Shown here one piece after another: positions 3,191 through 5,714 of a stretch of 64,000 nt of DNA. The notes under the pieces are model-generated. The model worked only from the letters and a program-made list of their open reading frames with translations, ran no database searches and was not told the DNA's origin. The stretch lies in the sequence record NC_019399.1; one strand, given 5' to 3'. The number at the start of each line of letters is the position of its first letter. Within the stretch, counting starts at the first letter, position 1. The DNA comes from Escherichia phage vB_EcoM_ACG-C40. Both the position numbers and the translations under genes were made by a program.

Positions 3191-3333
3191 GGATGTAAAC
3201 CGTTTTGTGAAAAAATTTTTAAAAAGTTTTGGGGAATTCTAGGGCAGGGAGGGGAAATCAAAGGATAGGATAATATATTATAAAGGGTAGAAACTAAATG
3301 ATGTCTAGAGAGGCCTGGAAAGGCCTAGATACC

Positions 3334-3360
3334 AAAAAGCCCCAACCTTTCGGTTGGGGC
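3334..3360 (-). terminator. rho-independent terminator (minus strand)
   Basis: Minus strand GCCCCAACC-GAAA-GGTTGGGGC followed by TTTTT. Confidence 0.65.
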
Positions 3361-3364
3361 TAAG

Positions 3365-3673
3365 CCTTGCGGCAACCTTGTCGGGGTTCCACCTGCTAAG
3401 GCAAGTGTTTGTACGAAACGCCGGGATTCGAACCCGGTTATTAAGCAGTTGACGCTACTCAATATTTTTTAAAAGGCCATATCTCGACCATATCCGAACG
3501 TTCCGTCAAAAACGCTACTCGGCTTACGGCAAAGATATTTCCTCGAATCGATAATTCGGTGCGCCGTTTCTGCTGTGATGTAAGGGGACATTAACAAAAC
3601 ATAAAGATTTATTAATGCCAGTCCTTAAACAGGGAACATCAGTCCGACGACTTACCGGTAGCGACCCGGTTTC
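3365..3673 (-). ncRNA. candidate small stable RNA region downstream of tRNA-Arg
   Basis: About 300 nt with no ORF, a tRNA-like T-arm (CCGGG-TTCGAAT-CCCGG on minus strand), duplicated GAGTAGCGT motif, ends at terminator 3334..3360. Confidence 0.25.
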
Positions 3674-4024
3674 TTAATATTCTTTTAAAGCATCAATCTG
3701 TTCACGGCGTTTACGCCATAAATCAATTGCTTCATACGCAGATTCAGCATTTCGAATTAGCCGGCATTTATGTAAAGACTTATGATTTTGATATTGTGTA
3801 GATAATGGAATTGTATCTAAAAGGTCTTTACGATCAAAGTATTCGTAACCATCTAAACCAAATGAACGATTTTTGAGAAATTGCCAATGGCCAAATTCAT
3901 TTTCAACATAAACATAATCTGCATGCTGATAAAGTAAATTAATTACACGTTCAGAAATAGCAGTATCATTATGATTAAAATAGAATGTTAAATCATGAAC
4001 TACTAAATAAACATTACCTTTCAT
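3674..4024 (-). CDS. hypothetical protein (116 aa)
   Basis: Intact ORF immediately 3' of the tRNA cluster. Confidence 0.5.
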   Translation of the reverse strand: MKGNVYLVVHDLTFYFNHNDTAISERVINLLYQHADYVYVENEFGHWQFLKNRSFGLDGYEYFDRKDLLDTIPLSTQYQNHKSLHKCRLIRNAESAYEAIDLWRKRREQIDALKEY

Positions 4025-4042: not shown

Positions 4043-4118
4043 TGGTCGAGGCAGTAGGGATCGAACCTACGACCCAGGACTTAGAAGGTCCTTGCTCTTC
4101 CTTCTGAGCTATGCCCCG
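4043..4118 (-). tRNA. tRNA-Arg (anticodon UCU)
   Basis: 76-nt cloverleaf folded by hand; anticodon loop CTTCTAA; T-loop TTCGATC; encoded CCA. Confidence 0.8.
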
Positions 4119-4122
4119 TAAT

Positions 4123-4198
4123 TGGGGTGACCGATGGGAGTCGAACCCATGACTACGAGAATCACAATCTCGAGTTCTACCAACTGAACTACGGCCAC
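4123..4198 (-). tRNA. tRNA-His (anticodon GUG)
   Basis: 76 nt; acceptor GTGGCCG/CGGTCAC; anticodon loop TTGTGAT; discriminator C; CCA encoded; no encoded G-1. Confidence 0.7.
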
Positions 4199-4312
4199 AT
4201 TAATACCTACTCCAACAATCATGATGTCTTCACACGAAATTAAGAGAAGAGTGATCAGTTCAACCCCTATAATCGCGTCAAGTAGATATTAATGTGACAG
4301 TTGTCACAAATT

Positions 4313-4387
4313 TGGCGGACGTGATAGGATTCGAACCTATAACCAATCGCTTAACAGGCGATCGCTCTGCCATTGAGCTACACATCC
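4313..4387 (-). tRNA. tRNA-Asn (anticodon GUU)
   Basis: 75 nt; anticodon stem ATCGC/GCGAT, loop CTGTTAA; discriminator G; CCA encoded. Confidence 0.75.
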
Positions 4388-4391
4388 AAAT

Positions 4392-4478
4392 TGGTGGGGA
4401 GTGATGGAGTCGAACCACCCGAGTCGCAATGACAATGAATTTACAGTCCACACCGCTACCTCTACGGGATAACTCCCC
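4392..4478 (-). tRNA. tRNA-Tyr (anticodon GUA), long variable arm
   Basis: 87 nt; anticodon loop CTGTAAA; T-arm GGTGG-TTCGACT-CCATC; discriminator A; CCA encoded. Confidence 0.7.
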
Positions 4479-4490
4479 TAATTCATAATT

Positions 4491-4565
4491 TGGTGGCCCT
4501 GGGTGGAATTGAACCACCATCTGGCGATTATGAGTCGCTTGCTTGAACCTTCCAGCTACAGGGCC
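4491..4565 (-). tRNA. tRNA with CAU anticodon (Met, or Ile if lysidine-modified)
   Basis: 75 nt; anticodon loop CTCATAA; T-arm GGTGG-TTCAATT-CCACC; CCA encoded. Confidence 0.7.
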
Positions 4566-4566
4566 T

Positions 4567-4642
4567 TGGTGCTGATTGACGGAATCGAACCGCCGACCTT
4601 CTCATTACAAGTGAGTTGCTCTACCTACTGAGCTAAATCAGC
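4567..4642 (-). tRNA. tRNA-Thr (anticodon UGU)
   Basis: 76 nt; D-arm GCTC-AGTAGGTA-GAGC; anticodon loop CTTGTAA; CCA encoded. Confidence 0.8.
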
Positions 4643-4647
4643 AAAAC

Positions 4648-4737
4648 TGGCGGAGGCGATAGGATTTGAACCTATGAGTCGCCGGAGCGACTGCCGGTTT
4701 TCAAGACCGGTGCATTAAACCACTCTGCCACACCTCC
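4648..4737 (-). tRNA. tRNA-Ser (anticodon UGA), long variable arm
   Basis: 90 nt; anticodon stem CCGGT/ACCGG, loop CTTGAAA; CCA encoded. Confidence 0.8.
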
Positions 4738-4739
4738 AG

Positions 4740-4813
4740 TCTCCATACAAGGATTTGAACCTTGGACCTCCTGATCCCAAATCAGGCGCTCTACCAAACT
4801 GAGCTACACGGAG
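4740..4813 (-). tRNA. tRNA-Pro (anticodon UGG), CCA not encoded
   Basis: 74 nt; anticodon stem CCTGA/TCAGG, loop TTTGGGA; T-arm CAAGG-TTCAAAT-CCTTG. Confidence 0.75.
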
Positions 4814-4823
4814 TAAATTGAAT

Positions 4824-4897
<74 letters not shown>

Positions 4898-4902
4898 AAA
4901 TT

Positions 4903-4989
4903 TGGTGCGAGAAGTGGGACTCGAACCCACAAGGAAATCATTCCGCAGCATTTTAAGTGCTGTGCCTTTACCAATTTGACCATTCTCGC
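4903..4989 (-). tRNA. tRNA-Leu (anticodon UAA), long variable arm
   Basis: 87 nt; anticodon stem CAGCA/TGCTG, loop CTTAAAA; CCA encoded. Confidence 0.8.
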
Positions 4990-4995
4990 GTTATA

Positions 4996-5628
4996 TTATT
5001 TATTACGTGAAAAAGACTGTTCTATCAATTCTGGACACTTTCGTTCTATCCATTTTCTAGCTTTTTGTGGGCTTATACCTATTATTTTAGCAGCTTTACT
5101 AACCCATCCAAATTTAGAATAATCGATTTTAACTAATTCTTCGTAAATTTCATCAGTTAAAATCTTTTCATTAATATTTACCAGTAAATGATATAATTTG
5201 TTATCATTAGCAATTTTAATGAATCTTTTATAGTTTCCGCCTTTACTTAAACCTAATGAAGTAATTGCAGATGATATAGTAGCCGAATTTAATAATGCGT
5301 TTAAAATTTCTTCATCACTAACATTATAACGCTTTTTATTATTTTTAATATTTTTACCAGCAAAAGTATCAGTTTGCGAATGACAGTTTGGACATAATAA
5401 TCTTAAATTTGATTTAAGATGATTTTTGTTATTTCCATCAATATGGTCTAATTGTAGAACAATATGCTTATTTTGCCATTTTGAAATTTTACAAATTGCA
5501 CACTCATATGGAAAAATATTTTCTTTTATTATTTTGTCTTTTAGCTTTCCTGTACTAAAATTTGGATGTTTTCCTTCAAAAATTTCAGCTAATTTAGTAT
5601 CCATAATATGATTCCCAATTATTAACAA
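4996..5628 (-). CDS. HNH homing endonuclease with C-terminal helix-turn-helix-like DNA-binding region
   Basis: Zinc-finger HNH motif CAICK...LQLDHIDGNNKNH...NLRLLCPNCH; ORF start at 5628 is TTG, first ATG is at 5604. Confidence 0.75.
   Translation of the reverse strand: MLIIGNHIMDTKLAEIFEGKHPNFSTGKLKDKIIKENIFPYECAICKISKWQNKHIVLQLDHIDGNNKNHLKSNLRLLCPNCHSQTDTFAGKNIKNNKKRYNVSDEEILNALLNSATISSAITSLGLSKGGNYKRFIKIANDNKLYHLLVNINEKILTDEIYEELVKIDYSKFGWVSKAAKIIGISPQKARKWIERKCPELIEQSFSRNK
4996..5628 (-). mobile_element. freestanding homing-endonuclease gene abutting the 5' end of the tRNA cluster
   Basis: HNH ORF ends 6 nt from tRNA-Leu. Confidence 0.5.
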
Positions 5629-5714
5629 AGGCTCTCAAGCAAGAACCCTTGATGATAGAGGGTATTAATCAGTGCGGTATGAGTTAATAATAACAAATAA
5701 TTCTTAAAGCATAT

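Follow-up and report, generated by a model that had tools for sequence, protein, structure and literature searches.

The stretch of DNA analysed here, a 64-kb window (64,000 nucleotides, nt) from Escherichia phage vB_EcoM_ACG-C40 (sequence record NC_019399.1), is part of a T4-like phage genome (genus Tequatrovirus) and carries on its minus strand a cluster of transfer RNA (tRNA) genes preceded by an open reading frame (ORF) for a predicted HNH endonuclease, which is the subject of this study. Read along the minus strand, the genes follow the order gene 1 (deoxynucleoside monophosphate kinase), 57A, 57B, an internal protein gene, trna.4, trna.3, trna.2, the HNH ORF and ten tRNAs. The features around the HNH ORF, in window positions, are as follows.

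5611..5617, minus strand: surviving first 7 nt of tRNA-Gln, TGGGAAT, 6 nt upstream of the HNH ATG, recognised by alignment with phage Paracelsus.
4996..5604, minus strand: coding sequence of the predicted HNH endonuclease, 609 nt and 202 amino acids (aa), with ATG at 5602-5604 and TAA at 4996-4998, taken from the ORF list and the sequence.
4990-4995, minus strand: 6-nt spacer TATAAC between the HNH stop codon and tRNA-Leu, forming the 3′ junction of the HNH cassette.
4903..4989, minus strand: intact tRNA-Leu(UAA), the first tRNA of the operon here, found by ARAGORN and by the Rfam tRNA model (59.3 bits).
4043..4897, minus strand: the remaining tRNAs Gly, Pro, Ser, Thr, Ile2 (CAU), Tyr, Asn, His and Arg, identified by ARAGORN, Rfam and the annotation of near-identical phages; ARAGORN labelled the Ile2 (CAU) tRNA as Met.

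An in-frame TTG further upstream, at 5628, would give a 210-aa ORF (4996..5628, minus strand); the ATG at 5602-5604 is the likely start codon, because all related records use it, and ten related phage loci share both this ATG and the length, with the exception of KarlGJung, which carries a 9-nt duplication. A first-pass annotation made from the sequence alone had placed the end of the gene 6 nt from tRNA-Leu and had found no tRNA-Gln here, and both observations hold. With TAA at 4996-4998 and the tRNA-Leu start at 4989, the gap is exactly 6 nt (4990-4995), while ARAGORN located tRNA-Gln nowhere in the 64-kb window and the Rfam tRNA model had no match within 4990..5700. The same annotation was also right that T4 has tRNA-Gln ahead of tRNA-Leu, in fact directly so, and a GIY-YIG gene, segB, in its tRNA region; segB is located between tRNA-Arg and tRNA-Ile, and the eight annotated tRNA genes of T4 (T4t001 to T4t008) all fall in one cluster.

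The HNH cassette replaces the body of tRNA-Gln

To define the junctions, the window and the HNH-carrying phages KarlGJung and a51 were aligned with the HNH-less phage Paracelsus. The flanks of the two kinds of allele aligned perfectly and the junctions were sharp. Written along the operon strand, the sequence of the HNH-less allele is ...TTAATAAT-TGGGAAT-TAGCCAAG...(tRNA-Gln)...TTCCCAG-C-GCGAGAATGG (tRNA-Leu), and the window allele reads ...TTAATAAT-TGGGAAT-CATATT-ATG...(HNH)...TAA-TATAAC-GCGAGAATGG. A cassette of ~620 nt thus stands in place of nt 8 to about 72 of tRNA-Gln, its end lying 6 nt short of tRNA-Leu. The TGGGAAT stub was kept in 10 of 10 HNH-carrying loci, and the distance from the first nucleotide of tRNA-Gln to that of tRNA-Leu was 628 nt in all of these loci but KarlGJung, where the 9-nt duplication makes it 637 nt. 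Other HNH-carrying alleles have TATAGC rather than TATAAC at the 3′ junction, and these may therefore retain as many as 2 nt (AG) from the 3′ end of tRNA-Gln. The earlier description of the gene as abutting the tRNA cluster was right in that it adjoins tRNA-Leu, but the relation is closer than that, since the gene precisely replaces the body of tRNA-Gln and leaves a 7-nt 5′ stub.

We also considered an intron-encoded endonuclease. Of tRNA-Gln, just 7 nt remain at the 5′ side and no more than 2 nt at the 3′ side, and this reading was rejected because the 3′ half of tRNA-Gln is absent; Rfam returned no intron or other match in 4990-5700, and in its scans of the window region and of contig L007 it matched tRNAs alone, with no known small RNA.

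The ORF encodes a predicted HNH nuclease with a C-terminal helix-turn-helix

Two regions of the protein could be delimited.

5350..5517, minus strand: predicted zinc-binding HNH (ββα-Me) nuclease core, about residues 30-85.
5020..5157, minus strand: predicted C-terminal helical DNA-binding region ending in a helix-turn-helix, about residues 150-195.

The ORF contains a zinc-finger HNH motif, CxxC...DH...N...CPNCH, of which C36, C39, D54, H55, N67, C72, C75 and H76 were invariant in an alignment of 30 relatives (residue numbers are those of a 203-residue translation, those of the true protein being lower by 1). The features of a ββα-metal core are all present, namely the catalytic His (in DH), the conserved Asn and the distal His/Asn metal ligand, and the two invariant CxxC pairs, C36-x2-C39 and C72-x2-C75, make up a predicted structural zinc site. 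PHROG 14736, 'HNH endonuclease', covers the protein from end to end (E 5.5e-124), and a dozen further HNH PHROGs also match. Among the 30 relatives, 25 matched the Pfam HNH family PF01844 at E<=0.01 (best 1.4e-6) and 14 matched Pfam HNH_3, and NCBIfam gave a local match to the IscB HNH region. For the C-terminal part, PHROG 16521 matched residues 77-189 and weak Pfam helix-turn-helix matches fell on residues 165-193. The AlphaFold model had a mean predicted local distance difference test score of 88, exceeding 90 in the nuclease core, and its C-terminal third was helical, with confident helices. A sequence search of the PDB, with the protein or with the 30-sequence profile, returned no usable match.

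Taking motif, family matches and model together, we conclude that the ORF product is an HNH (His-Me finger) nuclease with a C-terminal DNA-binding region. Pfam and PHROGs gave no GIY-YIG match for it, which, with the HNH motif and the PHROG HNH matches, bears out the first-pass assignment to a family other than that of segB. In the KarlGJung allele, the 9-nt tandem duplication TAAAAATAT (alignment columns 379-387) adds 3 residues to the linker past the HNH core and keeps the frame.

The cassette is found at a single locus in about one in eight Tequatrovirus phages

A 4-kb query centred on the locus matched 1154 phage records, and the 851-bp segment bearing the ORF was 99.6% identical to phage Ozark and 99.3% identical to HY03. 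By tblastn, the protein was present at at least 95% identity in 62 phage records; the next-best matches were at most 80% identical, and those spanning most of the protein, such as T5 HegA, were about 30-35% identical. Exactly 62 records also covered the gene together with both flanks to at least 80%, and because these two counts coincide, all HNH copies lie at one locus. The 72-nt tRNA-Gln was present in 441 records, and the HNH cassette occupies the tRNA-Gln slot in about one in eight sequenced Tequatrovirus phages. Carriers belong to at least ten species of this genus recognised by the International Committee on Taxonomy of Viruses, among them ozark, lutter, hy03, slur03, cm8, deeone, snuabm and pyps2t, with OE5505, PD112, MLF4 and teqhad as further carriers among RefSeq records. 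The ORF was full-length in all 62 records.

GenBank already labels the gene 'HNH endonuclease', 'homing endonuclease' or 'F-TflIV', and the records BP32 and Ec_O157kw name it 'H-N-H endonuclease F-TflIV'. In the searchable literature, which leaves much subscription literature uncovered, we found no description of the gene, of its replacement of tRNA-Gln or of its association with tRNA-Leu.

The cassette occurs on several backgrounds and is under purifying selection

We then compared the flanks in a small sample of 10 HNH-carrying and 8 HNH-less genomes. The cassette was found on at least three upstream flank haplotypes, each of which also occurs in HNH-less phages: KarlGJung shares its haplotype with the HNH-less phages Paracelsus, PYPS2T and fPS-90; the HNH-carrying phages a51, CM8 and phiD1 share theirs with SHBML-50-1 and Sf23, all of them carrying a 171-aa ORF; and the window and Ozark resemble F1 and RB10. 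All four combinations of the HNH/tRNA-Gln state with presence or absence of the 171-aa ORF occurred, and likewise with presence or absence of segB. The 171-aa ORF itself (PHROG 2290, no Pfam match; L003 2868-3383 in a51) occurs in only some of the phages, between trna.2 and the operon leader, a polymorphism about 100 nt from the HNH cassette and independent of the HNH/tRNA-Gln state.

The HNH-carrying KarlGJung and the HNH-less PYPS2T, of the same species, differed at 6 of 2191 upstream positions, and KarlGJung and Paracelsus at 3 of 2156 downstream positions; thus the exchange of tRNA-Gln for HNH is essentially the sole difference between them. Presence or absence at a fixed locus, sharp junctions and incongruence with the phage backbone, as read from these alignments, are the comparative features of a homing endonuclease.

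The synonymous diversity (πS) of the HNH gene was 0.038, compared with 0.076-0.106 for trna.2, trna.4, 57B and 57A in the same genomes, a deficit that would fit a recent spread of the cassette. The gene is not decaying and is under strong purifying selection: its ratio of nonsynonymous to synonymous polymorphism (pN/pS) was 0.03 within Tequatrovirus, and, measured against orthologues of 58-68% identity that occupy the same genome position in metagenomic T4-like contigs, the corresponding divergence ratio (dN/dS) was 0.10-0.26. The adjoining tRNA-Leu showed no fixed difference between HNH-carrying and HNH-less phages. Its position 11 (window 4979), in the D-arm, is a T/C polymorphism, GCGAGAATGG[T/C]CAAATTGG, found in phages of both kinds.

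The HNH gene has taken over the first position of the operon

Upstream of the cassette lie two predicted regulatory features.

5687..5714, minus strand: predicted T4 middle-type promoter, with a MotA box ATATGCTTTA at 5705-5714, a 12-nt spacer and a -10 element TATTAT at 5687-5692.
5626..5651, minus strand: predicted leader hairpin AAGGGUUCUUG-CUUG-AGAGCCUUU from RNA folding, between the promoter and the HNH start and also found in HNH-less phages.

The promoter, read by eye and near the T4 middle promoter consensus (www-TGCTTtA, 12+/-1 bp, TAtaaT; PMC2988021), sits just past the trna.2 stop codon, and the same 27 nt are annotated as 'promoter' in the record of phage Lutter. The same kind of promoter and 85-nt leader stands ahead of tRNA-Gln in HNH-less phages; therefore the HNH gene has taken over the first position of the operon, its start codon lying 13 nt past the former first nucleotide of tRNA-Gln. 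The GGGA of the stub, a possible weak ribosome-binding site, is the only element resembling a Shine-Dalgarno sequence. A second MotA-like box, TCTTGCTTGA, just upstream of the tRNA-Gln stub, was discarded, as no acceptable -10 element lies at 12+/-1 bp from it. The fold of the whole leader was no more stable than those of shuffled sequences (z -0.8), and within 4800-6100 matches resembling sigma-70 promoters were no commoner than in shuffles and no terminator was found.

These features suggest how the gene may be expressed. It would be transcribed together with the tRNA operon from the retained upstream promoter, and RNase P cleavage at the 5′ end of tRNA-Leu, 6 nt past the stop codon, would create the 3′ end of the HNH mRNA. 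Such processing would probably keep HNH expression low, as proposed for segB, whose ORF ends 5 nt before tRNA-Arg, an arrangement that was proposed to restrict the synthesis of an enzyme that might be toxic (PMC2330249).

Further nuclease cassettes fill different slots of the tRNA operon

The HNH gene is one of several cassettes in this operon. The gene segB occupies the Tyr/Asn slot in T4, fPS-90, F1, HY03 and pSe_SNUABM_01. A segB-like GIY-YIG gene replaces tRNA-Pro in CM8 (L013 2290-2898) and is present at at least 95% identity in 56 records. ORF160 (160 aa, PHROG 16521, function unknown) replaces tRNA-Thr in Lutter (L006 2239-2721) and pSe_SNUABM_01 (L015 2240-2722), keeps the first 15 nt of tRNA-Thr (GCTGATTTAGCTCAG) and ends 8 nt before tRNA-Ile2; it was found in 26 records at at least 95% identity, the T2 copy being truncated, and its N-terminal half had no family match. 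The gaps between cassette and next tRNA are all 5-8 nt (6 for HNH, 5 for T4 segB and 8 for ORF160), and the CM8 cassette ends a few nt before tRNA-Ser. Three tRNA-slot cassettes are held at once by pSe_SNUABM_01.

Several of these proteins are related at their C-termini. The C-terminal 65-75 residues of ORF160 and of the CM8 protein are 41% identical (E 1e-16), and the last 95 aa of the HNH protein match the CM8 C-terminus more weakly (34% identity, E 6e-5); thus a DNA-binding module appears to be common to cassettes with different catalytic domains. In the CM8 segB-like protein, the N-terminal 95 residues are nearly identical to those of T4 SegB and are joined to a different C-terminal DNA-binding half, the one in common with ORF160, and the gene looks like a product of domain swapping between tRNA-operon nucleases.

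The first-pass annotation had regarded the boundary of the tRNA cluster as a repeatedly used homing site. Repeated colonisation by nuclease genes holds for the operon as a whole and not for its boundary, because the other cassettes sit in the Tyr/Asn, Pro and Thr slots; the Gln slot holds all 62 HNH copies, and no other cassette was seen there.

Elsewhere in the operon, the 114-nt spacer between tRNA-His and tRNA-Asn (window 4199-4312, minus strand) had no tRNA or Rfam match and folds at -32.7 kcal/mol (z -3.7), only 1 of 200 shuffles being equally stable; this spacer and the His gene are missing in RB10, PYPS2T and Sf23 and form a further variable block. Past a 116-aa ORF (3674-4024, PHROG 3355), the region 3300-3670 (minus strand) resembles T4 rnaD/rnaC at its start (AAACCGGGTCGCTACCGGTAAGTCGTCGGACTGATG), and the 'tRNA-???' that ARAGORN reported at 3411-3506 inside it is probably a tRNA-like part of these stable RNAs and not a tRNA gene.

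Homologues in other phages lie beside tRNA genes, often tRNA-Leu(UAA)

Outside Tequatrovirus, we sampled 20 homologue loci. A tRNA lay within 300 nt in 17 of them, and in 7 the nearest or next tRNA was tRNA-Leu(UAA); it lay downstream in Aeromonas phage avDM4 (at 0 nt) and contig L035 (at 7 nt), and upstream, at 29-66 nt, in the jumbo phages KP13-7 and 7t3. If chance adjacency is taken as 0.10-0.15 per locus, a rough binomial estimate gives p 0.0006-0.008, for loci that are not independent. The association suggests that these proteins recognise some feature of tRNA-Leu(UAA) genes. We rejected the idea that tRNA-Leu travels together with the nuclease, as the tRNA-Leu genes beside the homologues share only 52-74% identity from phage to phage.

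In the metagenomic T4-like contig L007, a 68%-identical orthologue lies 14 nt past an intact tRNA-Gln and ahead of a tRNA-Leu-like 5′ stub. The region after it (4604-5010) consists of this stub, GCGAGACCAAGCTGGTAA, then ~400 nt of G+C-richer non-coding sequence and then tRNA-Met; the non-coding stretch, in which neither an ORF nor an Rfam match was found, could represent a degraded tRNA or else a structured RNA. In two distant homologues, the last HNH codons overlap the start of the downstream tRNA (tRNA-Lys at L033 1564-1637 and tRNA-Tyr at L039 1430-1513), a tighter form of the arrangement in which the stop codon abuts the next tRNA.

A free-standing homing endonuclease is the favoured explanation

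We favour, at a probability of about 0.7, the explanation that the gene encodes a free-standing and active HNH homing endonuclease of the F-TflIV/HegA-like lineage, lodged in the tRNA-Gln slot. Homing is what we infer from the comparative data. When HNH-carrying and HNH-less phages infect the same cell, the HNH-less allele would be nicked or cut by the enzyme, either within the tRNA-Gln that the cassette replaces or at the Gln/Leu junction, and recombinational repair off the HNH-carrying genome would convert tRNA-Gln to the HNH cassette; the HNH-carrying genome would itself be immune because the target sequence is gone. The target probably lies in the tRNA-Gln body or at the Gln/Leu junction, which, by analogy with SegB, is the simplest candidate because it is missing from HNH-carrying genomes and so would explain self-immunity.

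Several observations weigh against this explanation. In the searchable literature, no cleavage, target site or biased inheritance is reported for the protein or its close relatives. The protein's own PF01844 score of 17.3 bits (E 0.0054) is below the gathering cutoff of 21.4, and a Foldseek search with the whole elongated model returned nothing significant. The deficit of synonymous diversity is only about two-fold and comes from 9-10 non-independent genomes. No flanking single-nucleotide polymorphism is fixed between HNH-carrying and HNH-less phages, so that no co-conversion tract is visible; any such tract would be shorter than about 26-130 nt upstream, as judged from the KarlGJung/PYPS2T pair. 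Free recombination among T-even phages could yield a mosaic distribution without homing, and the frequent adjacency of the family to tRNA-Leu(UAA) suggests that the recognition site may be anchored in tRNA-Leu. It is because general T-even recombination could produce much of the same picture that we hold the homing explanation no higher than about 0.7.

The strongest competitor, although an unlikely one in our estimate, dispenses with homing: the nuclease would no longer be, or never have been, an active homing element here, and one ancient replacement would have been spread by ordinary recombination and retained because it helps the phage, perhaps by keeping competitors out or by stimulating recombination or amplification at the tRNA locus, as has been described for SegB. 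T-even genomes are indeed highly mosaic, purifying selection at a pN/pS of 0.03 fits a benefit to the phage as well as it fits homing, no co-conversion tract is visible, and the 58-68% identical orthologues at the same genome position in diverged T4-like contigs make the association old. Set against this are a synonymous diversity in the cassette half that of adjacent genes, the near-isogenic pair of HNH-carrying and HNH-less phages within one species, and the finding of all 62 copies at the same site with exact junctions, a geometry examined in ten loci; nor are ordinary recombination and homing mutually exclusive. Less probable still is a homing endonuclease whose site is anchored in tRNA-Leu(UAA), the loss of tRNA-Gln being collateral damage of the insertion. 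This would account for tRNA-Leu(UAA) being the nearest or next tRNA both in the window and in 7 of 20 homologue loci of unrelated phages, for the replacement of tRNA-Leu(UAA) by T5 hegA, and for the orthologue of contig L007 that precedes a tRNA-Leu-like 5′ stub and comes after an intact tRNA-Gln. However, the lack of any fixed tRNA-Leu difference between HNH-carrying and HNH-less Tequatroviruses, the low mutual identity (52-74%) of the neighbouring tRNA-Leu genes, and the loci in which tRNA-Leu lies upstream or on the opposite strand all speak against it. A site wholly inside tRNA-Leu would moreover leave the carrier unprotected, as tRNA-Leu is the same in both kinds of phage; our guess is that a site across the Gln/Leu junction would reconcile the adjacency to tRNA-Leu seen in the family with an unchanged tRNA-Leu.

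That the gene is what is left of a mobile gene, decaying or already defunct, or else a packaging nuclease such as those beside HK97-like terminases, is very improbable. Many phage HNH ORFs are one or the other, and the Pfam score is sub-threshold, but the gene is full-length in 62 of 62 records with its catalytic residues intact and under strong purifying selection, and it lies between trna.2 and tRNA-Leu in the tRNA operon, away from the packaging genes, a genomic position on which we rejected a packaging-associated HNH nuclease.

Implications for phage tRNA repertoires

Taken alone, the HNH gene of the window is one more uncharacterised and fairly ordinary T-even homing endonuclease, already labelled 'HNH endonuclease' in GenBank. 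Its value lies in the setting: tRNA-Gln and HNH form a clean natural pair of alleles, available in the near-isogenic BASEL phages KarlGJung and Paracelsus, and four different nuclease cassettes that each take one tRNA slot would explain why similar phages have differing tRNA sets. Phage tRNAs are known to counter host defences that cleave tRNAs, and a link between SegB and tRNA-locus amplification has been reported (PMC13096335). Selfish nucleases that delete or carry tRNA genes may affect host range.

More tentatively, and with rather less than even odds, we speculate that F-TflIV-like HNH proteins are a lineage of homing endonucleases that target phage tRNA genes, above all tRNA-Leu(UAA), and that have spread over the unrelated T4-like, T5-like and jumbo phages and the Herelleviridae. 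In the tRNA operons of T-even phages they would have a C-terminal DNA-binding module in common, and exchange it, with GIY-YIG and other nuclease cassettes, each cassette overwriting one tRNA slot and borrowing the operon promoter and RNase P processing to keep its expression tightly limited, so that they would be a main driver of the gain and loss of phage tRNAs. If so, these cassettes would shape tRNA repertoires and therefore the ability of a phage to withstand tRNA-cleaving host defences.

Comparison with known systems

The closest named relative is T5 HegA (F-TflIV), with 34.7% identity over 83% of the query by tblastn (E 5e-15). As Akulenko et al. 2004 is cited in PMC2330249 and PMC5714182, HegA/F-TflIV is an HNH site-specific endonuclease from the T5 tRNA gene region, and it has been placed in the PF01844 group of His-Me finger nucleases (PMC5714182). 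HegA and the HNH protein of the window have the same HNH core and a similar C-terminal helix-turn-helix motif, and hegA likewise lies in a tRNA cluster, 23 nt past tRNA-Ile2, where it replaces a 62-aa ORF and the tRNA-Leu(UAA) that are kept by hegA-less T5-like phages. By contrast, hegA leaves only a 3′ tRNA stub (CCTACCA) whereas the window HNH gene leaves a 5′ stub, and HegA has an extra N-terminal ~65 aa and comes from an unrelated phage family (Demerecviridae).

T4 SegB offers the closest parallel in arrangement, being a free-standing nuclease in the same tRNA operon that replaces tRNA genes (Tyr/Asn) and whose ORF ends 5 nt before the next tRNA, comparable to the 6 nt of HNH. The preferred cleavage site of SegB is in tRNA-Asn, a gene missing from segB-carrying T4, and segB was inherited by about 99% of the progeny in T4 x T2L crosses (PMC2330249). 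SegB differs in its GIY-YIG fold, in a nuclease domain without sequence similarity to that of the window HNH protein, in the slot that it occupies and in having been tested experimentally; the two genes coexist in HY03 and pSe_SNUABM_01.

Within the same phage genus, T4 MobA-E and I-TevIII are also HNH proteins of the PF01844 group, encoded by free-standing or intron-borne genes, and they spread by gene conversion between co-infecting phages (PMC2988022; PMC5714182). They lie at other loci (nrd, alpha-gt and others), and the HNH protein of the window is set apart from them by its membership of PHROG 14736, in which T5 HegA is the nearest named protein. Its architecture, an extended protein with an N-terminal HNH domain and a C-terminal helix-turn-helix, is that of I-HmuI, the intron-encoded HNH nicking endonuclease of Bacillus phage SPO1. 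In the 2008 paper on SegB, homing endonuclease genes in phage tRNA clusters were said to be rarely observed (PMC2330249); the present data suggest that they are common.

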